A stretch of 64,000 nt of DNA from a bacterium (GTDB lineage: Bacteria; Electryoneota; Electryoneia; Electryoneales; Electryoneaceae). The stretch is from assembly GCA_963669175.1 (NCBI GenBank), contig OY769902.1, positions 4,128,001-4,192,000 of the forward strand, read 5' to 3'. Below the pieces are notes generated by a model that ran no database searches, was not told the DNA's origin, and saw nothing but the letters and a program-made list of their open reading frames with translations. A program made the translations under genes and the position numbers. Shown in pieces: positions 5,541 through 20,678 of the stretch (positions are counted from its first letter, which is position 1; the number at the start of each line of letters is the position of its first letter).

Positions 5541-8500
5541 ATGTCGCAACGAAGTGCGTTAAAGAACGATTTAAGCAGGTATAAAAAGCTCGTAAAAAAA
5601 AATCCGCTGCTGTTTTCACGGGTTGCGGATATCGAGCTGAAGCTTGGACAGTACAAATCTGCTCGCAAACGCTTGGAAGATGGCCTGCGTTATCATCCCG
5701 ACCATTCGACGGGACGATTGCTGCTGGCCAAGGCGATGGAAAAAACCGGTTCACGTGAAGAGGCTATTGACGAACTGCGTACCCTGGTTAAACAGGAGCC
5801 AATGAATACCCGGGCAAGGCGTGAGTTTATCGCGGCCCTGACCGATTCCGGGCATACCGATGAATTACGACGCCAGATGTTCCAGCTTTACCAGATTGAT
5901 CCGGAAGACAAACAGAGTCGTAAAGGGCTTCGAACCCTGATCCTGGCAAAAGTCCGGGAAAAACACCCCAATATTCACGATTGGCCGGAAGAGTGGCTGC
6001 TTGCGGATTTTACCCGTGAAGGCGCGTTGGCCAAACGTGTAGCTCGTGACATGAACCTCGCAGAGGAACGCCCCTGCCCCCCGGACGATGTGGTTCCCGC
6101 GCTGGAAGACACCGATATCATCGATACCAAGGATGAATTGCGCAGACTGGGCGAACCGCTTGATCAACCATCTGTGGCAGCCCCGAAAAAACAACCTGAC
6201 ACTCCTGAAACTGCTGTTGAGGTCAGCCAGGAAGACCTCGATGAAACCATGCATGGCGAACTTAATACTCCAGAAGAATGGCAGCTCGATAAACAGGAAG
6301 CTACCGGTACGGTAACAACCGAACCGGTTGAAGAAATTGGTGACGAGGCGACGGAAGCAGATGAGGATGATTCCGCCCTTGCTGCATTGCAGGCGGATAT
6401 GGCGGCAATGCAGTTCGATCAGGAAAAACATGCTGCACCAACAGAAATGAAAGATGAAACACTAGTGGGAGATGAAGCTTCAACTGTTGCCACCTTTGAT
6501 GTGGAGCCGTTGCCGGATGACACCGAAGCGGAAGCGGGAATGATGGCTGAACCTGCGGATGAAACGGTTCTGGAAGCTGAAACAAGTGTTGATGAAGAAG
6601 TAACAACCATTGAAGAACCTGGCATTCCGACAGAAGAGGCTGACGACACATCGCTGGAAGATGAAGAAACGGATGAAACTGAAGACGAGGAACAAGAGGA
6701 AGAGGAAGAGGAAGAGGAAGAAGAGGAATATAACCCGGTCAAGGAAGCGCTAAGAGCTGCCGGACTTGAACCGAAAAATTATGTAGACGTTAAGAAGTTG
6801 CTTGCTTTGACTGAGCAGGAAGAACCGTCATTAATCCAGAAACCTTCCATAAAGAAGGCTGCCAAACGCCAGAAACCAGCCCCGACAGAAGAAAAACCGG
6901 TAGATGACGCTGAGGCCGCAACTGCCCCGGTTCAGTTGCCCGCAGATCAAGAGCAGAAATCGGCCGCAGAAGATAAAGCTGGCGATGAGTCAGGAAAAAC
7001 TGCACCGGCTGAAACGGATGCCGCAACGCAGCCGGAAGAACAGACACCTCAGGTAGAAATTGATGACCTGGACACCTCATTCTCGAAATCGGATATTGAC
7101 TCGATGTTTAAGGAAGCTGGCATTACAAGCAAAGAAGAACTTCAACAGATGCAAAAAGAAGAACACGAAGAATTGAAACAAGAGGATTCAAGCGAAACCA
7201 TCGAGCCGGGTGATATAGAAGAAGAGAAACCGGAAGAGCCTGCTCCTGCCGATGTCCCGGAAGCAACAGATACTGAATCCGCTGATTTCAACCAGGCGGA
7301 TCTGAATGCACTGTTTGATCAAAAACAGGATGATGAGGATAGCAGCTCCTTCAGCCAGGACGATATCAACGCGCTTCTGAAAGGTGGCGCATCGAAACCC
7401 GAACCCGCGCCCGAACCGGAAGAGGAACCCGCCCCATCCGCAGGCGGAGGATCGTTCAGCCAGGACGATATTGACGCACTCCTGAAAGGCGGCGCATCGA
7501 AACCCGAACCCGAGCCGGAACCTGAGCCCGAACCGGAAGAAGAACCTGAACCGTCAGCAGGTGGCGGCTCCTTCAGCCAGGATGATATCGACGCGCTTCT
7601 GAAAGGCGGCGCTTCCAAACCGGCCCCCGAACCCGAACCGGAAGAAGAACCTGAACCGTCAGCAGGTGGCGGCTCCTTCAGCCAGGACGATATTGACGCA
7701 CTCCTGAAAGGTGGCGCATCGAAACCCGCGCCCGAACCGGAAGAAGAACCAGAACCGTCAGCAGGTGGCGGCTCCTTCAGCCAGGATGATATCGACGCGC
7801 TTCTGAAAGGCGGCGCTTCCAAACCGGCCCCCGAACCCGAACCGGAAGAAGAACCAGAACCGTCAGCAGGTGGCGGCTCCTTCAGCCAGGATGATATCGA
7901 CGCGCTTCTGAAAGGCGGCGCATCGAAACCGGAACCCGAGCCAGAACCCGAGCCTGAACCGGAAGAGGAACCCGCCCCGTCAGCAGGTGGCGGTTCCTTC
8001 AGCCAGGACGATATCGACGCGCTTCTGAAAGGCGGCGCATCGAGACCGGAACCGGAGCCAGAACCTGAAGAGGAACCCGCCCCATCAACAGGTGGCGGTT
8101 CCTTCAGCCAGGATGATATTGATGCACTCCTGAAAGGTGGCGCATCGAAACCCGAACCCGAACCGGAAGAGGAACCCGCCCCATCCGCAGGCGGAGGATC
8201 GTTCAGCCAGGATGATATTGACGCACTCCTGAAAGGCGGCGCATCGAAACCGGAATCCGAGCCCGAACCGGAAGAGGAACCGGCCCCGTCAGGAGGTGGT
8301 GGTTCGTTCAGCCAGGATGATATTGACGCACTCCTGAAAGGTGGCGCATCGAAACCGGAACCCGAGCCCGAACCGGAAGAGGAACCGGCCCCATCCGCAG
8401 GCGGAGGATCGTTCAGCCAGGATGATATTGACGCACTCCTGAAAGGCGGCGCATCGAAGCCAGAGCCAGAAGAAAATGAAATGTCCCAAGCCGCTGCACG

Positions 8501-9593
8501 TACGCTTCAGGAATTGGACGCGAACGATGACTTTGATTTCGAAATCGGGTTCAGCCAGGATGACCTTGATGAATTGATTCAGGCCAAGAAAGAAATGGAT
8601 CGAAAGCCGGCAGCGCCTCCTTCACTTGGTCAGAAGGGGCCGCTAGGTCAGGATGACATCTCGGCCCTGTTTGCCAACCGAAGCCAGGTAAAAACTGAAG
8701 AGCCTCTGGCTGAACAGAAAGCAGAAAAACCTGTCGAAGATATCCCCGTTGAAGCAGTCGGTAACACAGGCAAGCCATTCAACCAGGACGATATTTCTGC
8801 ACTCTTCAGCCAGGTGAAGGAAAAAGGACAGGAAGCACACGAAGAGTTGGTGGAAGAATCGCTGGAAGACGAGCAACCGACTTCAGTTGCAGATATCATG
8901 AACGCCGCGCCGGATGAATCCCCAGTGGAAATGGCGGCCAGTGAGGCTGAAGCAATCGAAACTGAGACTGATAAAGTTGTACCAGTTGAAGAAGAAGAAG
9001 AAGTAGCAGCCGAAACGCCTGAAGCAGATGAAGCTCAGGAAATTGCAGCTTCGGAAGACATGCCTGTATCGCCATCAAAAACAACCCTGTTCAACCAGGA
9101 TGATATCAACTCCCTGCTTCGTGACATGGGCAGTATTCGTAGATCCGGTCCCAAACCGACTATTTCGCAAACCTTGTCCCAACCTCCCGCTGAACCGGAA
9201 ATACCGGAAGAAGCTGCGGAAGAAGTTGAATTGGCCGCAGAGCCGGTTATTGAGAAAGCTGCCGCCCAGAAAGATCCAGATGGCAGGTTTGACCTTGATC
9301 AATGGTTCCATTCCAAGCAGGATGATCAGGAAGCCGGCCCGACGCCCGAGAAGCCTTTGCCCAAACCGGCAAAGCCCCAGCCCCCTGTTGGGCAAGCGGG
9401 GACAAGCGCGCGCAAGGCCGTATTGCGTGGACCGGTCACAAAGACATTTGCGCGCCTGTTGTTGAAACAGGGCCACTCAGACCTTGCCTCTATCATTGCA
9501 CACCGGTTGTATTTGTTGAACCCGGAAGACCCGGAAGTGATTGATCTCCTGGCCGAGTCCATCTCCGGTATGGAAGAACCGGACGTCGAGTAG
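5541..9593 (+). CDS. Large acidic TPR protein with an array of SQDDIDALL motifs
   Basis: N-terminal TPRs, C-terminal TPR-like segment (VTKTFARLLLKQGH..LNPED), long acidic disordered middle; RBS GGAGG upstream. Confidence 0.85.
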   Translation: MSQRSALKNDLSRYKKLVKKNPLLFSRVADIELKLGQYKSARKRLEDGLRYHPDHSTGRLLLAKAMEKTGSREEAIDELRTLVKQEPMNTRARREFIAALTDSGHTDELRRQMFQLYQIDPEDKQSRKGLRTLILAKVREKHPNIHDWPEEWLLADFTREGALAKRVARDMNLAEERPCPPDDVVPALEDTDIIDTKDELRRLGEPLDQPSVAAPKKQPDTPETAVEVSQEDLDETMHGELNTPEEWQLDKQEATGTVTTEPVEEIGDEATEADEDDSALAALQADMAAMQFDQEKHAAPTEMKDETLVGDEASTVATFDVEPLPDDTEAEAGMMAEPADETVLEAETSVDEEVTTIEEPGIPTEEADDTSLEDEETDETEDEEQEEEEEEEEEEEYNPVKEALRAAGLEPKNYVDVKKLLALTEQEEPSLIQKPSIKKAAKRQKPAPTEEKPVDDAEAATAPVQLPADQEQKSAAEDKAGDESGKTAPAETDAATQPEEQTPQVEIDDLDTSFSKSDIDSMFKEAGITSKEELQQMQKEEHEELKQEDSSETIEPGDIEEEKPEEPAPADVPEATDTESADFNQADLNALFDQKQDDEDSSSFSQDDINALLKGGASKPEPAPEPEEEPAPSAGGGSFSQDDIDALLKGGASKPEPEPEPEPEPEEEPEPSAGGGSFSQDDIDALLKGGASKPAPEPEPEEEPEPSAGGGSFSQDDIDALLKGGASKPAPEPEEEPEPSAGGGSFSQDDIDALLKGGASKPAPEPEPEEEPEPSAGGGSFSQDDIDALLKGGASKPEPEPEPEPEPEEEPAPSAGGGSFSQDDIDALLKGGASRPEPEPEPEEEPAPSTGGGSFSQDDIDALLKGGASKPEPEPEEEPAPSAGGGSFSQDDIDALLKGGASKPESEPEPEEEPAPSGGGGSFSQDDIDALLKGGASKPEPEPEPEEEPAPSAGGGSFSQDDIDALLKGGASKPEPEENEMSQAAARTLQELDANDDFDFEIGFSQDDLDELIQAKKEMDRKPAAPPSLGQKGPLGQDDISALFANRSQVKTEEPLAEQKAEKPVEDIPVEAVGNTGKPFNQDDISALFSQVKEKGQEAHEELVEESLEDEQPTSVADIMNAAPDESPVEMAASEAEAIETETDKVVPVEEEEEVAAETPEADEAQEIAASEDMPVSPSKTTLFNQDDINSLLRDMGSIRRSGPKPTISQTLSQPPAEPEIPEEAAEEVELAAEPVIEKAAAQKDPDGRFDLDQWFHSKQDDQEAGPTPEKPLPKPAKPQPPVGQAGTSARKAVLRGPVTKTFARLLLKQGHSDLASIIAHRLYLLNPEDPEVIDLLAESISGMEEPDVE
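7345..8475 (+). repeat. 11 intragenic tandem repeats (~99-117 bp) encoding SFSQDDI(D/N)ALLKGGASKP(EP)nEEEP(A/E)PSAGGG
   Basis: Counted directly; units differ in the number of EP dipeptides and at synonymous positions. Confidence 0.95.
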
Positions 9594-10284: not shown

Positions 10285-11871
10285 GTGCGGGGTTTACAAC
10301 GTCTTGCAATTATCCTGATGCTATGTGCTGTATTTGTTTCAGTGCAGGCTCAGACCGACGGTGATCCTCAGGATCAACGGGAAGATGCTACCGCCCCACC
10401 GCCGCAAATTGCCGGGGAGCTGGAGCTGGAGAAGGCCCTGTCGGAGCGGCTTGAAGAGATGCTTCAGCCACTGGTCGGACCAACGGTGGTCATGGTGGAC
10501 ATCACCCTCGGTGAGGTGCCCGTTGAATTGCAGGGGTACATTTACAGCCAGTCTCGCAGTCTGCCGGGATTACCGGTTTCAGTGAGTGAAGATGTTCGCA
10601 GAATGCAGGAATCCGGCTGGTATTTCAGTGAGATATCCAAAACCATTATTCATGTATTTGTTTCGGGATCCATGTCGGAACGTGAGATTGAACGTATACA
10701 CGAACTGATCCCGATCTGGATTTCTATCAATTCCAGTCGCGGTGACCAGATTATTATTGAACGATCACCATTCATCAATCCCCCGTTGACCCTTATTCAG
10801 TATCTATACTCGAAGCGAGGGTTGTGGACCGCAATCCTTATCCTTGCAGGCCTGATTGTGCTTGCCGGAGTTGTCTACTCCGCGATTTCCAGGTTTTCGC
10901 GCTACCGTATGGTGGAATCACCTGTCGGCCATGAGCAGGAAGGCGGCGGCGCTAGCATGTCCACCACAGACCTCGCCAAATTGTTGGGAATGGCAATGGG
11001 CGGTGGCAGCGGTGCTGGTGGTGTTGGCGGAACCGCGCCCGGCGGTGGCGTTGGCGGCGGGTCCGGCGGCGTTGGCGGCGGCGGTATTGGCGGCGGCGCT
11101 GGCGGTGCTGGTGGCGTTGGCGGAGGCGCTGGTAGCGATGCTGCGATATTGAGTCTGCCTGATGGTGAGATTCCCATCCGAATTGTGCGCGACAAGGAAT
11201 CAGAGGGGAAAAACCGTGGTGTTCTGGCAAAAGTAGCCAACATGAACGCACTTAGCCTCCTCAAATTGATCGAAGGAGAGAGCCCTGACTTTGCAGCGCT
11301 GGCGTTAACCTCGGCCAAGCCTGACATTGCCGGTAAAATTATTGGTGAACTACCGGAACAACAGAGAAAAGAGATCCTGGCTTATTGGGATATCCTGGAG
11401 AAAAACGATGCGGACAAGATCAACCAGATGGTTGAGCGTATCCGCAAGAAGCATACAACAGTCAGCTCTGTAGCCATTTCTCTTGGCGATGGGACCGCGA
11501 AGCTTTCGAACATCATCAACGCTCTGCCTGATCGTGAAGCGCAGGAACTTTACGCCAGCCTGACCAATGCTGATCCCGCCCTGGCAAAGCGTGTGCGCAA
11601 GAGTGTATTCTTCCTCAGCGACTTGATGAACCTGGAAGAGGCCACACTGAAACGTGTTGTTCTGCGTCTCCCGAACCCGACGCTCGCAGCTCTGATATCT
11701 ACTGCTTCAGATGATGTAAAGAATGTCGTATTCGCTTGTCTGTCACGACGGGCGATCAACATGGTGTCTGAGGAAATGGCCATGCGTCGTTCCAAGTCAC
11801 GTGACCGCATAGCCGAAGCAAAACGCACCTTCCTGGATACGTTGCAGCAGGTGCAGGAAACCAGTTTGTGA
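10285..11871 (+). CDS. Putative FliF(ring domain)-FliG fusion rotor protein
   Basis: Signal peptide; FliF-like segments (LEEMLQPLVGP..VDI; INSSRGDQIIIERSPF); one TM helix; Gly-rich linker; FliG middle (ESPD for EHPQ) and C-terminal domain (DPALAKRVRKSVFFLSDL..LSRRAINMVSEEM). GTG start follows GGAGGGG. Confidence 0.78.
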   Translation: MRGLQRLAIILMLCAVFVSVQAQTDGDPQDQREDATAPPPQIAGELELEKALSERLEEMLQPLVGPTVVMVDITLGEVPVELQGYIYSQSRSLPGLPVSVSEDVRRMQESGWYFSEISKTIIHVFVSGSMSEREIERIHELIPIWISINSSRGDQIIIERSPFINPPLTLIQYLYSKRGLWTAILILAGLIVLAGVVYSAISRFSRYRMVESPVGHEQEGGGASMSTTDLAKLLGMAMGGGSGAGGVGGTAPGGGVGGGSGGVGGGGIGGGAGGAGGVGGGAGSDAAILSLPDGEIPIRIVRDKESEGKNRGVLAKVANMNALSLLKLIEGESPDFAALALTSAKPDIAGKIIGELPEQQRKEILAYWDILEKNDADKINQMVERIRKKHTTVSSVAISLGDGTAKLSNIINALPDREAQELYASLTNADPALAKRVRKSVFFLSDLMNLEEATLKRVVLRLPNPTLAALISTASDDVKNVVFACLSRRAINMVSEEMAMRRSKSRDRIAEAKRTFLDTLQQVQETSL

Positions 11872-11881
11872 GGAAACGAGC

Positions 11882-12637
11882 ATGAAGCTTACATCTTTGT
11901 TTGGTCTGCTCATGGGCCTCGGACTGGTATTCGTTGCAATCATTTCCCGTGGCAGTCTGCTGCAGTTTATCAGTATTGAGTCCATCTTTATTGTGCTGGG
12001 TGGCACTGTCGGCGCCACTCTGCTGTCCTTCAACCGGGATCAGCTTGAAATTGCAATCCGCGCAATTCGTGTCGTCTTCTTCGATACCACTCCCCCACCG
12101 GATAACCTGATCCCGATTATGGTGGACCTGGTAAAACAGGCGCGTGTGAATGGTGTTGGTTCATTGGAAGTTCCTGAAGGCGAGGGCGAACGAAATGAGT
12201 TCCTCCACAAAGCAGTGGACATGCTGATTGACGGTATTGAACCGAGTGTCGCCGCTCAGATTTTGCAGGGCGAATCGGACGCTATCGCATCACGCTATCG
12301 TATGAGCGAGCGACTGTTCACAGTCATGGGCACATATACCCCTCTGTTCGGATTGTTGGGCACAGTCATCGGTCTGATCATCATGCTTTCCAGCGTAAAT
12401 GATCCCATGGCTATCCCGGGCGCGATGGCGGTTGCCATGTTGACCACATTTTACGGCGTTCTGTTCAGCGCCATGATTTTCCGTCCCATGGCGACCAAGA
12501 TTCGCGCATGGAACTATGATGAAATCCAACTGCGTGACCTGATTATCGAAACCATGATGCACATTTCTGAAGGTGTCAACTCGCAGATTTCGCAGGAACG
12601 TCTGCAATCGCAGTACCGTACCCGGAGGCGTGGCTAA
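11882..12637 (+). CDS. motA: Stator A subunit (MotA/PomA/MotP family)
   Basis: SIFIVLGGT, ARxxGxxxLE, PLFGLLGTVIGLI and AMLTTFYG motifs. Confidence 0.92.
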   Translation: MKLTSLFGLLMGLGLVFVAIISRGSLLQFISIESIFIVLGGTVGATLLSFNRDQLEIAIRAIRVVFFDTTPPPDNLIPIMVDLVKQARVNGVGSLEVPEGEGERNEFLHKAVDMLIDGIEPSVAAQILQGESDAIASRYRMSERLFTVMGTYTPLFGLLGTVIGLIIMLSSVNDPMAIPGAMAVAMLTTFYGVLFSAMIFRPMATKIRAWNYDEIQLRDLIIETMMHISEGVNSQISQERLQSQYRTRRRG

Positions 12638-13338
12638 TGGCAGGCCCTCGTCGCTGGAATCCCAAGAGAAGACGGGTCATCGAACCGGAACATGAAGGTG
12701 AACCCTGGCTGACCACGTATGGCGACCTGATGACGTTGCTGCTGGTGTTCTTTGTCCTGTTCTACATCTTTTCCGTAACGGGGCAAATGCCTTTCCTGAA
12801 AGAAGCGTTTGAACGCTTCCAGATGAAATCGGAAGCGCCCGCCGCACTTGACGCACAGGAATTTGAACAGATCGAGGAAGCCGGTGGTGAAATCGTCATT
12901 TCAATCCCTTCCAACGTCCTGTTTGACCTGGGACAAGCTGATATCAAACGGGAAGCGATGTATGTTTTGCAGGATGCGGTAAAACAGATCAAAGATCATT
13001 TGATAGATGCGCCACATGCGCAGATACGTGTGGAAGGCTACACCGACAACCTGCCGATCCATAATTACCAGTTCCGTTCCAATTGGGAACTCTCGGCTGC
13101 TCGTGCTATTGCTGTGGTTAAATACCTGATTGAAATTGAAGGATTTAAGCCCGAGCGTTTGCAGGCTATGGGGTATGGTGAGTACAACCCTGTCGTTCCG
13201 AATGATACCGCGGAAAACCGTCAGAAGAACCGTCGTGTTGAAATCAAGATTGTCAAATCTCCCGTTGACCAGAGCTTTGACGAGCTTTCCACGGGCGCAC
13301 CTTCTGGATTCCCATCGCAACAGGCGAGGAACGAATGA
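12637..13338 (+). CDS. motB: Stator B subunit (MotB/PomB/MotS family)
   Basis: WLTTYGDLMTLLLVFFV transmembrane helix with the conserved Asp; OmpA-like domain (VEGYTDN, NWELSAARA, NRRVEI). Confidence 0.93.
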   Translation: MAGPRRWNPKRRRVIEPEHEGEPWLTTYGDLMTLLLVFFVLFYIFSVTGQMPFLKEAFERFQMKSEAPAALDAQEFEQIEEAGGEIVISIPSNVLFDLGQADIKREAMYVLQDAVKQIKDHLIDAPHAQIRVEGYTDNLPIHNYQFRSNWELSAARAIAVVKYLIEIEGFKPERLQAMGYGEYNPVVPNDTAENRQKNRRVEIKIVKSPVDQSFDELSTGAPSGFPSQQARNE

Positions 13339-16300
13339 AGCGGGTACGCTGGCATCTTTTCCTGTTGCTTTTTCTTCCGCTCTGCACGTTTGCTCAGAGC
13401 CGGATTGATCTCTCCCCCTGGCCGGGAAACATGGCCTGGTTTGGTGAAGGCACCCAGCGTGTCGGTGTCGCCATCGCCTCCGGTGATATGAATGGCGACG
13501 GTCTCTGGGATGTGGCCATTTCAGCGCCGGGCACAAGAAACAACTCCGGTGATGTATATGTATTCCTGGGCGATGGAGTCACGTTCGATTCAGTTCGTTT
13601 TGATAATCCCGCTGCAGAAGCCAACCTTGTCATAGAGGGTACTGCCGGGTTACAGATCGGTGTCAAGCTGGTGATGGGTGATCTGAACGGTGACGGACGT
13701 GACGATCTGGTCATCGGCGCGCCCCATGCCGACGACAGTCGCGGACGAGTCTGGGTTATCTTCGGCAGCGCATCTCCTTCCGGGACGGTTACTGAACCGG
13801 ATGTTGAAATCTTCGGCAGTGCGGACGGCGATCACTGTGGACGCGCCATTGGTATTACCAACATCGGTGACGATGCCTACAACGACATTGTCATCGGCTC
13901 CCCCAATGCAGACCCTCGCCAGCGAGACAGCGCGGGACGTGTTGATGTTATCGCCGGACGGGCTTCCTGGCCGGAAAACATATCCCTTTCTACACAGGCA
14001 TCGACTGTAACCGTATTTGGCGGCCAGACCGGTGAACAACTGGGTGAAGCCATCAGCGTCTGCCCCATTTTCCAGGGGACATTACTGGGCAACAACCTTA
14101 ACGGCGACGGGTATGGCGACCTGATTATCGGCGCTCCGGGACGAACCTACGCAGGGCGTACTGGCGCTGGCGCTGTCCATATTTTCGTCACCCCGGAAAG
14201 CCTGGCAGATACGGTAGACCTTACCACTGACAACGTCCCACTTCTGCAAGACTACCGTCAGCTCGGCGGCGCACAGACCCTGGATCTGACCGGCCGCGCT
14301 ATCGCTTCGTTTAACACAACGGGAATTCGTGGTGTCCTGATCGGCGCTCCGGCAGCGTTGCAGGACGGAGTGCGTGGCGGCGCTTTTTATTATATCACCT
14401 GGGATGAGATCAACACGGCCGCTCCTTGGGCAGATCTTCGGCAGGCAACCTACTTCCGGGTGAAATTTACCGGCGCGGCGGAGGATGATTCACTCGGCGC
14501 AGCGGTTGCAGGTATTGATGAGCTGATGATGGCGGCAGCGCCCGGGGCGAATTACCGGGCACGGGAAGAAGCCGGGCAGGTGGTTGCGATAACCGACAAC
14601 CCGATTCTGACAGGCATAATCCGTGTCGATACCCTTGACGCCAATGTCCGTCACTTTTTCGGTGCCGGTGCGGGCCATGACCTCGGTCGCTCACTGACCA
14701 TTGCTGATCTCGATGACGATGGCATCTTTGATCCCATCATGGGATCACACTCCCATACAGACTATGCCGGGGCTGTTCACGCCGTACGTGGCGGGCTGCC
14801 CTATTTCTTCAACATTTACCCGGCGCCGGGACAGGGAAATATTCCCAGCGAAGATACCCTGTCTTTCCGCATCAGTGATGATGAAACAGGAATTGCGACA
14901 GCCAGTTTTATCATGATCCTGGATGGCATCACGTACAACATTAACCATCCTGGTGTCAGCTACGAGATGAACGACGGGATCTATTCCTTTGAGCTGGTCC
15001 CGGAAGAACCCTTTGATATCAATGTTCCGATCAACGTGATCACCCATATCACAGACACACAGGGTAACCGTTCACCGCTCTGGTATTACCAGTTCATCAC
15101 CGGTCAGGATGTCACTGCGCCGTATCCCACTCAATTCTCCCCCGCACCGGGCGAAGTAAATGTCGCGACCACACGTGACATCGCCTTCAGTCTGCGTGAT
15201 GCCGGAGATGGTGTTGACAGCACGACAATCATGGTCGTGATTGATACGGATACGGTCCGCCAGGGCGATCCAGAGATGAGAATCAGCGGTTCCATTTCCA
15301 ATTACCGTGTCGTGATCAATCCCGAGTCTTCCTTGCCGCCAGACGCACAGATTGACGTACGAATTGAAGCGGCTGACCTTACGGAGCCATCCCCCAATTG
15401 GATGACACCGTACGATTATTTCTTCTTTACCTCACTAGATACAATTCCGCCGGAACTGGTTTTCATTTACCCGGAACCGGGCGTAACGATTGATGTCGGA
15501 ACCAAAATCAATTTCAGAATCATTGATACCGGATCAGGGGTAAATGCAGATTCTACCAAAATCCTTCGCACTCAGCAAAGTGGTGAAGAATACGGCGATC
15601 TGTTATTCGAAGCCATCTCACAGGGATACGCGTTCGTTCATAATCCTGAGAATAATCCCTATGATTCCGGGCTGTTGCAACTGACGGCACAATCACGTGA
15701 CCTGGCTGATGATCCCAATATCATGGAGGATTCAACCTGGTCCTATAATGTCATTGTGGATAACCGTGCGCCTGAACTGACTGAAGCGATACCGCACCCG
15801 GATAGTGTGGGATCAGCACGAAACACGCCGATTACCCTGACCATCATGGATAACGCGGCGGGGATCGACTCCACCACCTTGCAACTCGAAATTGATAATG
15901 TCTTTATCGCCCATCGCAATATCATCTGGGAACGCATCGAGCATCTTGGTTACCGGATTACCTACCAGCGTTCAGAAGGCATATACGGCGACAGTGTGAT
16001 CGTCCACCTGAACGTGTTTGACAAAACAATCCCGGACGGTATCGAACTGGATACCACATATATTTTCTATCCCGAGAACGATGATGAGCCGCCTTATTTC
16101 CTACTGGTTGATCCGCCGCAGGGATCGGAAGGTGTATCTGTGGAAGATTCCCTGATATGGGAAGCCGCGGACGACATGACCGGAATCGACCCATCCAGCG
16201 CCTACATCTCGATCAACAATGCGGACCATTCCGTACTGTTGCGATACAATACCCACCCTGTCACCCAGGGCGCACAATACAGGTTCGTCTATACTCCGCC

Positions 16301-18005
16301 GTTATCGCTGCCTTATGAGGATACGGTCAGTGTCCGCTTCGGCATCAGTGATAACGAGGAACCGTCCAATGACGCGATCCTCGTGTATGAGCTGTTTACC
16401 GAGCCGGATGAATACCCGCCCTACCTGACCAATTTGAGCCCGTATCCGGGACAGATCGGCGTATCTCGTGGCGCGGATATCGTGTTCCATGTTCTGGACG
16501 CCGGGGTTGGTGTGGCGCGTGATTCGCTGCATCTCGCCATTGATGGAATCGCCGTAGCCAATGAGAACATCTACTGGGAAGAGGTTGAACAGGGATATGC
16601 TTTCCGTTACAATCCGCCTGGTCTGTTCGGTCATACGGATACAGTGCATGTATCCGTGACCTGCTATGACCTGGCAACCTCACACAACCGTATGGATGAA
16701 TCTTACTGGTTTGTCACGCTCCGAGATGACCGTGAACCTCCCTACATGGAAGAGGAACAACCGGCTGATTCTTCCGGAGGTGTATCACCAGATATTATCC
16801 TCAGTTTCGACCTGAAGGATGACGGCGAAGGTGTCGATACCAGCTATACTACAATCCAGAACATGGACGATCCCCTCTGGATAGCGACACGTGAAGTAAC
16901 ACCTATCATCAACGGTTTCCACTATGTGCTGGCCCCGGCAACCGATTTCCTGTACAGCGATACGGTGACGATCGGCGTGAACGCTCGTGATCTTGCAGAA
17001 CCGGCGAATGTGACACCGAATCCGTTGACATTCTCTTTCTACACCCAGTTGGATGACGCTTCCCCCTTCTTTACCGAGCTGCAACCTGCGCCGGACTCTA
17101 GTATTACCTATAACCGTCCAGTCAGCTTTGAAGTTATCGATATGCTCGCCGGGGTTGACACATCCGATGTCCACATCTTCATTGATTCGGAAGAAATCAC
17201 GAATAACAGTGACGATTACGAAATCCTTATCGAGGAAACAGCCGACGGCTGGCGGTATACCTATACGCCGTACGATGGTTGGAATGTGAGCACAACCTAT
17301 TCTGTGACGCTTTCCGCTGCCGACTATTCCAATATTCGCAACGAGATCGATTCAACCTACCAGTTTGAGGTCATTCCTGACCTGGTCGCGCCGTATGTAA
17401 ATAGTTTTGCGATTGTCCGACTGGTTAACGATACTCTTGCTGTGGTTGACAGCACCAGCATCACCCTTGACGATTACCTCTATTTCGAAGTGCTGGATGA
17501 CGGCATCGGGGTAGATGCGAATTCGATCCGTCTCGAACTGGGCGGACGTAACGCCCCGGAACCAGTTCTTACCCAGGAGCTGGAAACCGGTTACTATCGT
17601 GTGTACCGATTGAGCGACTGGAATTCTGTCGGTCCACAGTACCTATTCCCCGGCCAGCAGGTGCAGGCATATATCAGCGCTCGCGACCTGTCGGTTCCGG
17701 AAAACACGCTGACTCGTGACAAGCATACGTTCTATATTCCACCTCCCGATGTGGAGCTGCTGGTCATTCCAACGACCATTACTCCGAACGGTGACGGTGT
17801 CTGGGATGAAGCGCTGATCTATCATAAGGGATCTTCATCGGCTTCCGTGGATTTCTTCGACATGCGCGGGCGTAAAGTTGCTACAGTCCAGGGCAACCCG
17901 GCAAGCTGGAACGGCAACGATGACAGCGGCGAACCCGTACCGGGTGGATTATACATCTTCCAGGTCAGCGGCGGTGGCCAGGGCACAATTGCGGTGGCAC
18001 GATGA
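13335..18005 (+). CDS. Large surface protein: FG-GAP beta-propeller, ~9 Ig-like repeats and gliding-motility-associated (T9SS type B) C-terminal domain
   Basis: Signal peptide; GDxNGDGxxDxxIGAP repeats; recurring DxxPP..PxPG..F.I.D..GVD units; C-terminal ITPNGDGVWD..FDMRGRKV..WNG..GLYIF. Confidence 0.85.
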   Translation: MKRVRWHLFLLLFLPLCTFAQSRIDLSPWPGNMAWFGEGTQRVGVAIASGDMNGDGLWDVAISAPGTRNNSGDVYVFLGDGVTFDSVRFDNPAAEANLVIEGTAGLQIGVKLVMGDLNGDGRDDLVIGAPHADDSRGRVWVIFGSASPSGTVTEPDVEIFGSADGDHCGRAIGITNIGDDAYNDIVIGSPNADPRQRDSAGRVDVIAGRASWPENISLSTQASTVTVFGGQTGEQLGEAISVCPIFQGTLLGNNLNGDGYGDLIIGAPGRTYAGRTGAGAVHIFVTPESLADTVDLTTDNVPLLQDYRQLGGAQTLDLTGRAIASFNTTGIRGVLIGAPAALQDGVRGGAFYYITWDEINTAAPWADLRQATYFRVKFTGAAEDDSLGAAVAGIDELMMAAAPGANYRAREEAGQVVAITDNPILTGIIRVDTLDANVRHFFGAGAGHDLGRSLTIADLDDDGIFDPIMGSHSHTDYAGAVHAVRGGLPYFFNIYPAPGQGNIPSEDTLSFRISDDETGIATASFIMILDGITYNINHPGVSYEMNDGIYSFELVPEEPFDINVPINVITHITDTQGNRSPLWYYQFITGQDVTAPYPTQFSPAPGEVNVATTRDIAFSLRDAGDGVDSTTIMVVIDTDTVRQGDPEMRISGSISNYRVVINPESSLPPDAQIDVRIEAADLTEPSPNWMTPYDYFFFTSLDTIPPELVFIYPEPGVTIDVGTKINFRIIDTGSGVNADSTKILRTQQSGEEYGDLLFEAISQGYAFVHNPENNPYDSGLLQLTAQSRDLADDPNIMEDSTWSYNVIVDNRAPELTEAIPHPDSVGSARNTPITLTIMDNAAGIDSTTLQLEIDNVFIAHRNIIWERIEHLGYRITYQRSEGIYGDSVIVHLNVFDKTIPDGIELDTTYIFYPENDDEPPYFLLVDPPQGSEGVSVEDSLIWEAADDMTGIDPSSAYISINNADHSVLLRYNTHPVTQGAQYRFVYTPPLSLPYEDTVSVRFGISDNEEPSNDAILVYELFTEPDEYPPYLTNLSPYPGQIGVSRGADIVFHVLDAGVGVARDSLHLAIDGIAVANENIYWEEVEQGYAFRYNPPGLFGHTDTVHVSVTCYDLATSHNRMDESYWFVTLRDDREPPYMEEEQPADSSGGVSPDIILSFDLKDDGEGVDTSYTTIQNMDDPLWIATREVTPIINGFHYVLAPATDFLYSDTVTIGVNARDLAEPANVTPNPLTFSFYTQLDDASPFFTELQPAPDSSITYNRPVSFEVIDMLAGVDTSDVHIFIDSEEITNNSDDYEILIEETADGWRYTYTPYDGWNVSTTYSVTLSAADYSNIRNEIDSTYQFEVIPDLVAPYVNSFAIVRLVNDTLAVVDSTSITLDDYLYFEVLDDGIGVDANSIRLELGGRNAPEPVLTQELETGYYRVYRLSDWNSVGPQYLFPGQQVQAYISARDLSVPENTLTRDKHTFYIPPPDVELLVIPTTITPNGDGVWDEALIYHKGSSSASVDFFDMRGRKVATVQGNPASWNGNDDSGEPVPGGLYIFQVSGGGQGTIAVAR

Positions 18006-19453
18006 GAAGGCGTGGATTATCAAGAGGCCTGCAAGTCCTGATCAGCGTTTCACTGCTGGTTCTGCTGTTCTCCGCCCTGCCGACTCATGCGGCGTTTGAA
18101 GTGCTTCCGGGTAAACGTGCAACCGCGCTAGGCGGCGCTGTAGTGGCATCCGGCGGCGATCCGATGGGCTTCTACATCAATCCAGCCTCGATTGCCTGGG
18201 GCACAGTCACCTCGGTTGAAACCTTCTACATGAAGCCATTCTGGGGACTCGACGGCGATGCGCTGTCACGTTCGGCGATAAGCGGTTACGGCAGCCTCGG
18301 CGACTGGGGCGCTATCGCGCTTGGTTATGACCAGTTCGGCAGCGATCTATATAGTGAAAACCGTACGCTGTTGAGCTATGCCCGTAAACTCACGATGTAC
18401 GAACGCATGTTCACCGTGGGCGTTTCGCTTGAATTCCTGGGCCGCAAATATGCCGAGACAGAATATACCGCCATCGACCCGCTGTTCATTGAATATGGCT
18501 ATTCCAAGCGTTCTGTAGGTATCGACATCGGCATGCAGATGCGCCTGACCTCACGTATGACTGCGGGGCTGGCAATCCGTCGTATCAACAAACCGAACCA
18601 GGCGCTGGAAGACGGTGTGGATGATCCGCTGCCCCGTGAAATCCAGGCGGGTGTATCCATGCGCTTCACCCGTTTCATGCTGTATACGGATATTGAGTAC
18701 CGCGACCGTTCGCTCAACGGTGCAGACGTTTCGCCTCGACTGGGCGTAGAATTTCCGCTGTTCAACAATGCGCTGCACTTGCGTGGCGGCGGCAACCGAG
18801 ACGAAGTTGCGCTTGGCTTCGGGCTGAATATCTGGAAACACGACAGCGAAAAGAGCTACATGAGCAGTGCGGATGAGTCCGGCGCTCGTGAACGCAGGCG
18901 CGATATCAAAAACGCCACTTTGCGTGTCGGGTATACGTTCCGCTTCCCTATCGGAGGTGTGAGCGGCACTATCGGCCACCATATGCTGGGTATCGATTTT
19001 TACTTCGAACGGAAGCGTACGGTAATGGAACGGGTGCGTCAACCGCGTCCGGTCCAGGTGCCCCAGATTATCGTGGAAACGGATACGGTGCTGGTCGAGA
19101 AACCGGTGCTGGTGCATGAATTCGTTGAAGACACCAGCAAGGTGGAACTGCTCGAGGCCCGGATCACCGACCTTGAATCACAGCTTTCCCAACTGGTAAA
19201 CATGAACACGGCCATCCGTGAAGTGGAAATCGCTCAACGCCTGTTCTTGCAGAAAAACTACCAGGAAGCCCTGAATGCCTGCGACCGTGCCACCCGCCTC
19301 GTCCCCACACTGGCCCTCGCCTGGGTACAGAAAGGCTCGATCTACTACGCTATGGGACGCTACGGCGATGCCCGGACCGCGTGGAACCGAAGCCTGCGCC
19401 TCGATCCGAAACGGGATGATGTGAGGCAGTATTTGAAGCAGTTGCCGGAGTAA
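18002..19453 (+). CDS. PorP/SprF- or PorV-like outer membrane beta-barrel with C-terminal coiled coil and TPR
   Basis: Signal peptide, GKRATALGGA..FYINPASI motif, amphipathic strands ending GHHMLGIDFYF, then TPR (AWVQKGSIYYAMGRYGDA..LDP). Confidence 0.75.
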   Translation: MRRRGLSRGLQVLISVSLLVLLFSALPTHAAFEVLPGKRATALGGAVVASGGDPMGFYINPASIAWGTVTSVETFYMKPFWGLDGDALSRSAISGYGSLGDWGAIALGYDQFGSDLYSENRTLLSYARKLTMYERMFTVGVSLEFLGRKYAETEYTAIDPLFIEYGYSKRSVGIDIGMQMRLTSRMTAGLAIRRINKPNQALEDGVDDPLPREIQAGVSMRFTRFMLYTDIEYRDRSLNGADVSPRLGVEFPLFNNALHLRGGGNRDEVALGFGLNIWKHDSEKSYMSSADESGARERRRDIKNATLRVGYTFRFPIGGVSGTIGHHMLGIDFYFERKRTVMERVRQPRPVQVPQIIVETDTVLVEKPVLVHEFVEDTSKVELLEARITDLESQLSQLVNMNTAIREVEIAQRLFLQKNYQEALNACDRATRLVPTLALAWVQKGSIYYAMGRYGDARTAWNRSLRLDPKRDDVRQYLKQLPE

Positions 19454-19545: not shown

Positions 19546-20256
19546 ATGTGTCCAGTAGTCCACAGAAACCTTGGGATGTATACTGTAAGCGAAATACAAC
19601 GGCTTACAGGAGTACATTATAATGCCCTATATTACTGGATTCGTGGATATACTCGTAATGATATTAAAGTCGCTCAACCAGTTATTTTGCCTCAATATGA
19701 TATCCTTGAAGATAAATATCTACTTGGATTTTACAACCTTATTGAAATTCGAATAGTCAAGAAATTGCGAGAATTGGGAGTATCGCTAGATGCGATAAGA
19801 ACAGCAAATAAAAAAGCACAAGATTATTTTAAAATTCCTCATCCTTTTGCAAGTGAGAAAATTAAGATTAAAACGGACATGAGATCAATTTTTGTTGATG
19901 CCGGAGAAGAAGAAGAAGATAACATTTTGCTAAATTTAGTTAGCGATGAATATAATATGGGAACAATAATTAAAACTTATCTACGCGACATTGATGTTAA
20001 TGCAGAGAAAATGGCAAGCAAATGGTGGCCTTTATCAAAAGAAAAGACAATTGTTTTAGACCCAAATTTCAATAATGGGAAACCAATAGTAGCTAAGCAT
20101 CTTGTTCCTACAGAGGTTCTTTACAATGTTTACCAAGCCGAGGGCGCTAATGAAGACGCAGCTGAATTTGTAGCTGATTTATATCGTGTATCGCTGAAAA
20201 ATATGCTACATACTATTGAATTTGAGGAATCTTTCACCAGGAGAAAGGCTTCGTGA
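19546..20256 (+). CDS. Putative antitoxin, HTH plus DUF433 (VapB45-like)
   Basis: GMYTVSEI HTH; FYNLIEIR..LRELGVSL..HPFA; IVLDPNFNNGKPIV DUF433 motif; RBS GAGGAGGG; AT-rich. Confidence 0.8.
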   Translation: MCPVVHRNLGMYTVSEIQRLTGVHYNALYYWIRGYTRNDIKVAQPVILPQYDILEDKYLLGFYNLIEIRIVKKLRELGVSLDAIRTANKKAQDYFKIPHPFASEKIKIKTDMRSIFVDAGEEEEDNILLNLVSDEYNMGTIIKTYLRDIDVNAEKMASKWWPLSKEKTIVLDPNFNNGKPIVAKHLVPTEVLYNVYQAEGANEDAAEFVADLYRVSLKNMLHTIEFEESFTRRKAS

Positions 20257-20678
20257 AAATATTTCTTGATAAACACATTCCTATATCCTATTGCGAGTGT
20301 ATTAAAAAGTCATTTCAAATGAAGGGGTATTTCGTTTATCATTATACGGAGATGTTTGTATCAAGCGAGCGTGATGATGATGATTGGCTGCTACATCTTT
20401 CGCAGGAAGGTGATTGGATTGCAATTACAGCCGATTTAAATATTTATCGGACACCTCATAGAAAGCGATACTGGAAAGAAGCAAATGTTCAGACTTTCTT
20501 TTTACCGAAGGGCTATACTGGTTTAGGATCGATGTTCATGCTTACTAATTTAATGTGTTGGATCAATAAAATTATCAAAATTGCTGAAAATAAAAATTCT
20601 GAGAGAGGCTACTACATAACGAAGCATGGCGTTTTTTACAATATTAATACTGTCACAAAACGGAATGCTCCCAGATAA
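20253..20678 (+). CDS. Putative PIN-like toxin (VapC45/PIN_10-like)
   Basis: MKIFLDKHI, DDDWL and ITAD motifs; GTGA overlap with the antitoxin. Confidence 0.75.
   Translation: MKIFLDKHIPISYCECIKKSFQMKGYFVYHYTEMFVSSERDDDDWLLHLSQEGDWIAITADLNIYRTPHRKRYWKEANVQTFFLPKGYTGLGSMFMLTNLMCWINKIIKIAENKNSERGYYITKHGVFYNINTVTKRNAPR

Follow-up and report, generated by a model that had tools for sequence, protein, structure and literature searches.

A five-gene cassette joining a FliF-FliG fusion and MotAB to a surface protein and outer-membrane barrel: a candidate envelope machine in Electryoneota

What would a rotor-like gene and two stator genes do in one tight array with the genes for a giant surface protein and an outer-membrane barrel, in a genome that encodes a complete flagellum elsewhere? 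This question is raised by a 64,000-nucleotide stretch of DNA from a bacterium of the Electryoneaceae (the window; C1:4128001-4192000 of a 5.45-Mb single-contig genome, G000), in which an earlier note had proposed a flagellum-independent rotary motor operon. The cassette lies at window positions 10285-19453 (9.2 kb) and comprises five plus-strand open reading frames (ORFs), overlapping or near-abutting in the ORF listing: gene 1 (the rotor), genes 2 and 3 (MotA- and MotB-type stator subunits), gene 4 (a secreted surface protein) and gene 5 (the barrel). The junctions from genes 1/2 to genes 4/5, read directly in the sequence, are TGA followed by 10 nt and ATG, then TAATG, ATGA and ATGA, and the five co-oriented, tightly coupled genes thus agree exactly with the earlier description. 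We give a little better than an even chance to the reading that these genes form one self-contained, ion-driven envelope machine, separate from the flagellum, in which a rotor-stator unit is coupled to a surface adhesin module.

The argument starts from gene 1, whose product has the topology of a signal peptide or N-terminal transmembrane (TM) helix, a periplasmic domain of ~135 residues, a TM helix, a Gly-rich linker and the FliG middle and C-terminal domains (FliG_MC). Pfam recognizes FliG_C (73.8 bits) and FliG_M (28.8 bits) within the C-terminal 200 residues and does not detect the FliF half. Profile alignment with hhalign of 31 fusions against 11 FliF proteins of the phylum gave 97% probability and an E-value of 8.9e-11, pairing fusion positions 48-216 with FliF positions 240-450, which is to say RBM3/YscJ_FliF_C and the second TM helix. 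An AlphaFold model of the rotor (mean pLDDT 75, with 76-95 in the periplasmic blocks) was matched by Foldseek to FliG MC 1lkv (E 3.2e-9), to FliG 1qc7 (root-mean-square deviation 1.3 Å), and to the FliF RBM3/collar S-rings 8z5v, 6sd3 and 7cg7 (E ~1e-5 over 141-160 columns); weaker matches of RBM type were found to SpoIIIAG 5wc3 (E 1.2e-2) and 2y9j (E 6.6e-3). The torque helix retains R489 and E496/E497, which in alignments fall on the R...EE positions known from canonical FliG, including that of E. coli. At the tip of a long hairpin in the periplasmic domain stands the loop S92-LPGLPV-S99, in which S92, L93, P94, L96 and P97 are invariant and G95 is found in at least 90% of rows, and D154 of an RGD motif is invariant in close and distant fusions alike. 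The profile alignment to FliF and the structural matches to FliF rings bear out the identification made in the earlier note: gene 1 encodes a real FliF(RBM3/collar)-TM-FliG(middle+C) fusion.

Several parts of the canonical proteins were looked for in this fusion without being detected. For RBM1 and RBM2 of FliF there is no PF01514 (YscJ_FliF) match at E <=0.01, and a whole-genome search with YscJ_FliF returned the flagellar FliF as its sole match. For FliG_N the sole match, at 19.1 bits (cut-off 25), falls on residues 468-525 and is not an N-domain; the match of gene 1 to TIGR00207 likewise begins at model position 112. The Gly-rich linker stands where the FliF C-terminal peptide and FliG_N would be. 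The EHPQ(R) sequence of FliG_M, which we take to be the FliM-binding motif, appears as EHPQT in 4/4 canonical FliG rows of a 14-row alignment and in 0/10 fusion rows, the window's rotor having GESPDF. Lacking both FliG_N and the EHPQ motif, the fusion would be unable to attach to FliF or FliM as canonical FliG does. The regions by which the canonical proteins contact FliF, FliM and the export gate have been lost.

Genes 2 and 3 encode a stator pair of flagellar type, with a four-TM A subunit of the flagellar clade. Gene 2 matches Pfam MotA_ExbB at 77 bits and aligns over its full length with flagellar MotA/PomA chains of the PDB (E ~4e-38), and its loop carries R88 and E96; among NCBIfam models it scores best with PomA and MotP, although PomA gives 182 bits against a cut-off of 341 and no equivalog cut-off is reached. 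Gene 3 matches Pfam MotB_plug (51.2 bits) and OmpA (75.7 bits), its Asp30 aligns with the channel Asp, and its OmpA-like domain reached 101 bits in a separate comparison. The MotB_plug match ends at profile position 45 of 58, the spacing from TM helix to OmpA-like domain is 21 residues as against 67 in MotB of C. sporogenes, and a 25-residue segment that follows the TM helix in the genome's flagellar MotB is missing from 8/8 aligned cassette MotBs (those of the window and of loci L010-L013, L042, L049 and L055). This shortening of the plug/linker region suggests a stator that may be gated or positioned differently.

The remaining two genes were described in the earlier note as a type-B adhesin of the T9SS (type IX secretion system) and a PorP/SprF-like barrel, and each description holds in part. 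Gene 4 has Pfam matches to FG-GAP (90.5 bits), Big_5 (49.6 bits) and CHU_C (32.3 bits, cut-off 27), and CHU_C is also above its cut-off in 3/3 scanned orthologues; the TPNGDG motif is present, while the C-terminal sorting domain scores 22.7 bits with the NCBIfam type-B model TIGR04131, below the cut-off of 35. Gene 5 passes the Pfam cut-off for PorP_SprF (30.6 bits, cut-off 22.3) and has a TPR match, and with NCBIfam it stays below the cut-offs both of PorP (40.5 bits, cut-off 90.55) and of PorV/PorQ (42.3 bits, cut-off 90). In the predicted model, whose mean pLDDT is 74, 14 long strands (~40-346) are followed by a long helix at 378-416 and four TPR-like helices, with the tail extending to 479, and Foldseek places the barrel about equally close to OmpG, the T9SS translocon protein PorV (8gl6_F, 6h3i_F) and FadL. 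Because both NCBIfam scores are under their cut-offs and the folds are about equal, we file gene 5 as a predicted barrel of the PorP/PorV superfamily, not assignable to PorP over PorV/PorQ. In even-stranded barrels the usual topology puts the termini in the periplasm; for this reason the TPR tail is predicted to be periplasmic.

Whether these five genes belong together is a matter of how they are distributed. A search with the rotor among 1.84 billion representatives gave 6066 proteins at E <=0.001, of which just nine, the window's own included, match at full length (at least 454 bits). The five-gene order is found at 5/5 related genome loci (36-64% identity), homology having been checked by Pfam in three of them and by alignment in all five; identities to the window are 55-87% for MotA, 43-71% for the adhesin, 46-75% for the barrel and, over the four loci at which it was aligned (L009 left aside), 54-56% for MotB. 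The genes neighbouring these five loci are not flagellar. Within the phylum the full-length fusion occurs in 9/79 species genomes, all of them in the window's family (9/16), two further matches of the rotor search in the phylum being ordinary FliG. The full-length barrel-TPR protein (at least 548 bits) occurs in the same 9/79, the other 50 matching genomes reaching at most 67 bits; in 8/9 carriers the barrel lies 7.6-8.1 kb downstream of the rotor on the same strand, and in the ninth (G031) rotor and barrel are encoded on different small contigs. FliF is present in 66/79 genomes of the phylum and in 16/16 of the family, and 7/16 family genomes thus have FliF without the cassette; SprA is present in 75/79. 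Compared with 9/79 for the cassette, these counts indicate that flagella, and the T9SS in general, do not require it, and the cassette as a general T9SS motor was rejected on the same ground. As far as these genomes indicate, the parts of the cassette have been inherited, lost and rearranged together.

Beyond the family, the search of representatives also gave proteins of ~425-700 amino acids with the same topology, whose source names include Cloacimonadota and candidate division KSB1. When six such proteins were used to scan metagenomes, 14 loci were found, six of which had enough flanking sequence to be examined, the other eight being 2.3-6.8 kb long. The distant contigs are low in GC (guanine plus cytosine), and their fusions are ~20% identical to that of the window. 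At 6/6 of these loci an ORF of 452-504 residues precedes the fusion and ORFs of 245 and then 208-219 residues follow it, and at 4/4 loci with room upstream the product of the first gene is between 956 and more than 2784 residues long. By Pfam, at two loci, the order is Ig/cadherin-repeat protein, barrel with TPR, fusion, MotA, MotB. The barrel of L042 is homologous to that of the window from end to end (25% identity over 481 residues, E 6e-35), and the large proteins of the distant loci and the window have in common Ig-like repeats and a pattern at the extreme C-terminus, although the cargo proteins of the distant loci gave no Pfam match to CHU_C. The synteny is thus more than a chance arrangement, recurring in the same order at all five related loci and in a permuted order in distant relatives. 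That the same five parts stay linked through rearrangement, at ~20% rotor identity, is in our judgement the strongest argument for their putative functional coupling.

Two side observations concern these distant proteins and loci. At L042, an ORF of 301 residues with an MscS-type mechanosensitive-channel domain (L042:12740-13645) follows MotB; a 301-residue ORF also follows MotB in L045 and is absent from L049, L054 and L055. Two proteins, P0015 and P0016 (701 and 667 residues), form a third fusion group, in which a FliG_C-like segment is duplicated and the linker is longer and contains repeated helical segments. Clusters in the ESM Atlas that combine YscJ_FliF_C, FliG_M and FliG_C are commonest in Elusimicrobiota, Cloacimonadota and Bdellovibrionota, with scores of 0.79-0.92 that we treat as leads only.

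The FliG_MC phylogeny bears on whether the close and distant fusions arose once. In a tree of 137 rows, which left out proteins shorter than 300 or longer than 600 residues as well as P0002-P0005, the close family is a long-branch clade apart from the clade of Cloacimonadota type; in a tree of 47 rows both fusion groups fall together on one side of a branch with support of 98.6. One origin of the fusions is favoured, though not proved, by the SLPGLPV loop and the MotB deletion that both groups share and by the homology of their barrels.

Could the cassette nevertheless consist of flagellar genes out of place? The flagellar cluster of this genome lies at C1:2.784-2.822 Mb, 1.34 Mb from the cassette (C1:4.138 Mb), and contains FlgC, FliE/F/G/H/I/J/K, FlgD/E, MotA/B, FliL/M/N(Y)/O/P/R, FlhB/A/F/G, FliA and FlgG; its FliG has all three domains, and the genome has eight flagellin loci. 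With a separate full cluster that has its own fliF, fliG, motA and motB, the cassette genes are extra paralogues, and displacement of flagellar genes, the possibility by which the earlier note would have undone its own proposal, is ruled out. Its statement that no other flagellar gene stands in the window held for FliG_C, FliF, MotA_ExbB and flagellin, whole-genome searches for which add none there; rod, hook and FliM/N genes were seen just in the cluster at C1:2.78-2.82 Mb. The interpretation given in the earlier note is borne out in part. The label of flagellum independence goes further than these genomes allow, FliF being found in every genome of the family, carriers included. The Bacteroidota frame of the earlier note does not fit either: the host belongs to the Electryoneota and shares its family with the metagenome-assembled genome of Ca. 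Electryonea clarkiae, itself a carrier (G032, of the same GTDB family). For that organism complete flagellar gene sets are reported (PMC9324843), and the main text of the same paper contains none of the terms T9SS, type IX, gliding or MotA.

The presence of a flagellum in all carriers of the phylum leaves room for a reading in which the fusion is a FliG-like protein which, with an extra MotAB, serves at or beside the ordinary motor as alternative stator, brake or assembly factor, the adhesin and barrel being mere neighbours. Flagellated bacteria with a second set of stators or with paralogues of FliG are known, and the MotA of the cassette is of the flagellar PomA/MotP type. We nonetheless judge this reading very improbable, since the fusion brings a membrane anchor and a ring domain of its own while lacking FliG_N and the EHPQ motif, the rotor and barrel-TPR genes occur in exactly the same genomes, their linkage outlasts the permuted gene order of distant lineages, and the flagellar cluster lies far away on the chromosome.

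The secretion side of the genome was searched in the same way. SprA is encoded (SprA_N 149 bits, in a frame of 2272 residues), while GldK, GldL, GldM and GldN were undetected genome-wide with Bacteroidota-derived models, a result obtained with no T9SS-positive control and hence not establishing absence. For GldLM in particular, PF12081 and TIGR03517 gave no match and TIGR03513 a best E of 0.02 (genome-wide, again with no positive control), and a crude look beside the FGE-sulfatase genes showed no gldKLMN-like operon. As a separate observation, the combination of widespread SprA in the phylum with GldKLMN undetected in G000 by Bacteroidota-based models points either to very divergent homologues or to a T9SS powered differently. 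These results are where another explanation has to be weighed, namely that the rotor and stator act, as PorLM/GldLM do, to power export, translocon release or barrel loading of this one giant protein and not its later movement. A cargo with a T9SS-type C-terminal domain and a PorV/PorP-like barrel would suit such a role, as would SprA in a genome where Bacteroidota-derived models detect no GldK/L/M/N; in the known T9SS, moreover, a 5:2 motor drives a periplasmic ring. We consider this explanation unlikely: the Gld searches had no positive control and do not establish absence, nothing ties the cassette to SprA, and the disparity between SprA and cassette counts in the phylum argues that it would not be a general T9SS motor.

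Under the reading we prefer, a self-contained machine coupling rotor and stator to a surface adhesin, the parts would work as follows. The fusion would assemble into a ring, as FliF RBM3 does, and ion flow through peptidoglycan-anchored MotA5B2 would push the retained torque-helix charges of FliG_C, turning or dragging that ring; as there is no FliM/FliN, there would be no switch. From the periplasmic collar with its SLPGLPVS loop the motion would reach the barrel's TPR arm, whether by direct contact or via the periplasmic domain of the stator, and the barrel would hold the adhesin at the cell surface, where it would be rotated, displaced, tensioned or loaded. SprA, encoded elsewhere, would export the adhesin as the T9SS translocon. 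Rotation, physical coupling and independence of the flagellum are properties that we infer from anatomy and co-inheritance only. A predicted complex of rotor residues 40-178 with barrel tail 372-483 scored 0.26 against a mark of 0.32 and counts neither way.

Force could in principle run in the opposite direction. Flagellar stators are known load sensors, and a chain of adhesin, barrel and TPR tail might load the stator or rotor such that ion flow or ring state is read as a signal of attachment. The TPR tail could contact the MotB periplasmic domain, much as the Vibrio TPR protein MotX is described as doing (PMC13277936). Such a surface or load sensor is decidedly unlikely in our estimate: Pfam and NCBIfam find no signalling output domain in any of the five proteins, and no regulator is conserved beside the cassette, its downstream neighbours varying among a C25 peptidase, a transposase and an HTH-plus-PIN pair.

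Several points weigh against the machine as we have drawn it: 1) the C-terminal domain of gene 4 and the barrel are both under their NCBIfam cut-offs; 2) the very short MotB linker and truncated plug segment are unlike those of flagellar stators; 3) the carriers are relatives in one family, so that co-occurrence in 9/9 amounts to few independent events; 4) 9/9 carriers of the phylum are flagellated, so cross-talk with the flagellum is possible; 5) the FliG trees disagree on a single origin of the close and distant fusions; and 6) a ring dragging tethers through the peptidoglycan would be mechanically awkward unless the link were axial. A broader proposal extends the machine to a widespread, undescribed rotary organelle, a "flagellum without an axle", in which a MotAB-spun FliF(RBM3)-FliG ring would spin or drag a barrel carrying a giant adhesin, providing a novel form of motility on surfaces or of active attachment; we advance it tentatively and rather doubt it. 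Needing just the rotor-stator core, such an organelle may also reveal what this core could do apart from the type III export apparatus, a matter relevant to how the flagellar motor originated. The distribution of the organelle would include Electryoneota by direct searches and Cloacimonadota and KSB1 by source names, with Elusimicrobiota and Bdellovibrionota as leads only.

Positions of the cassette features are collected in the table below. Gene 1 may start at the ATG of the database model as an alternative to the GTG, upstream of which stands GGAGGGG. GC content across the cassette is 0.50-0.53, inside the range of the window, and a recent foreign insertion is accordingly unsupported. A scan for promoter-like sites (17 versus 11.1 expected) and terminator-like sites (12 versus 10.9 expected) was uninformative.

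Features of the five-gene cassette, in window coordinates
Feature	Position	Strand	Basis or remarks
Gene 1, rotor	10240/10285..11871	+	528 aa from GTG 10285; 537 aa from ATG 10258
Periplasmic RBM3/collar-like domain of gene 1, residues 40-175	10402..10809	+	hhalign, Foldseek, pLDDT 76-95, invariant columns
TM helix of gene 1, residues ~180-201, then positive residues on cytoplasmic side	10822..10887	+	Aligned to FliF TM2
Disordered Gly-rich linker of gene 1, residues 209-310	10909..11214	+	pLDDT <50; sequence
FliG middle and C-terminal domains of gene 1, residues 313-527	11221..11865	+	Pfam; Foldseek 1lkv; alignments
Gene 2, MotA/PomA-type stator A subunit	11882..12637	+	251 aa; Pfam, PDB homology
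Gene 3, MotB-type stator B subunit	12637..13338	+	233 aa; TM helix with Asp30, OmpA-like peptidoglycan-binding domain
Gene 4, secreted surface protein	13335..18005	+	1556 aa; signal peptide, FG-GAP, Big_5/Ig-like repeats, C-terminal sorting domain
C-terminal domain of gene 4, residues 1478-1556	17766..18002	+	TPNGDG...W.G.D..G..VPGGLYI pattern; T9SS type-B-like
Gene 5, outer-membrane barrel with TPR	18002..19453	+	483 aa; Pfam, predicted fold

Both flanks of the cassette carry genes of separate interest. Directly 3' of it, at window 19546-20678 on the plus strand, is an overlapping pair of genes for a helix-turn-helix (HTH)-like protein, with weak MerR_1/HTH_66 matches, and a PIN_10 domain protein. 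The pair looks like a toxin-antitoxin pair and is not kept beside the cassette at other loci, where a C25 peptidase or a Tn5-type transposase is found. On the other side, window 5541-9593 on the plus strand encodes a cytoplasmic protein of 1350 residues that has a TPR domain at its N-terminus and a long acidic region of repeats. The protein carries a motif resembling FSQDDIDALL 15 times. A six-frame whole-genome scan found this pattern once elsewhere, in flagellar FliM at the N-terminus (MNRILSQDEIDALL); with a looser pattern, the orthologues of the 1350-residue protein have seven copies in L012 and one each in L010 and L013. Given the role that we take this motif to have, binding of phosphorylated CheY (CheY-P) or FlhG, the protein could be a multivalent binder of either. 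It was considered, along with coaE, as a sixth and seventh part of the cassette, and both were rejected: neither L011 nor the distant loci have the protein upstream, and its N-domain occurs in 15/16 family genomes, including all seven without the cassette, which argues that it is not part of it.

To our knowledge FliF and FliG are known solely as parts of the flagellum, and among the non-flagellar relatives of MotAB (ExbBD, TolQR, AglRQS, GldLM, ZorAB) we know of none that uses FliG. Literature searches, which did not cover supplements, yielded no description of a system of this kind and no other use of FliF or FliG, and the novelty of composition asserted in the earlier note stands to that extent; in passages of a paper on MotAB evolution, FliG figures just as the flagellar rotor partner (PMC12505986). 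Within the literature searched, the cassette represents a kind of system not described before. If the machine exists as proposed, it would constitute a new class of ion-driven envelope machine, in which a minimal FliF-FliG rotor, together with a stator of its own, is joined to a barrel and adhesin of T9SS type, and structural work would gain a natural minimal rotor. It would bear on how outer-membrane adhesins receive torque or force and on which parts of the flagellar motor work without an export apparatus. The case is a clean one, as the host has a complete, separate flagellum and the cassette genes are therefore paralogous additions and not remnants.

Among known systems, the flagellar torque unit (FliF MS-ring, FliG ring and MotA5B2/PomA5B2) is matched by the RBM3/collar and TM2, the FliG_MC torque charges and the flagellar-type MotA/MotB of the cassette. 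The cassette differs in having its rotor in one polypeptide and not two, without RBM1/RBM2, FliG_N or EHPQ; in having no genes for FliM/N, export gate, rod, hook or filament attached to it; in its shortened MotB linker and plug; and in its partners, an outer-membrane barrel-TPR protein and a giant adhesin. Engineered FliF-FliG fusions of Salmonella and Vibrio are reported to show that covalent fusion is compatible with formation of the membrane ring (PMC10941966). As described there, those are full-length laboratory constructs within a flagellum, whereas the fusion of the cassette is natural, truncated on both sides and located outside the flagellar cluster. The SpoIIIAG and SctJ/PrgK rings share an RBM-type fold with the periplasmic domain of the rotor, with matches much weaker than those to FliF RBM3, and unlike the cassette rotor they have no FliG and no association with a stator. 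The gliding and T9SS machinery of Bacteroidota is described as a GldLM (PorLM) 5:2 motor and a GldKN ring, with SprB paired with SprF and type-B C-terminal domain proteins with PorP-like anchors (PMC8986121, PMC9143113). The same logic is apparent there: an ion-driven motor in the inner membrane, a periplasmic ring, a barrel of PorP/PorV type, and a giant adhesin gene adjoining the barrel gene. The cassette, in contrast, would use MotAB in place of GldLM as its motor and a ring derived from FliF/FliG in place of GldKN, in a host of another phylum where GldKLMN was undetected (in searches with no positive control), and its barrel has a TPR tail of its own.

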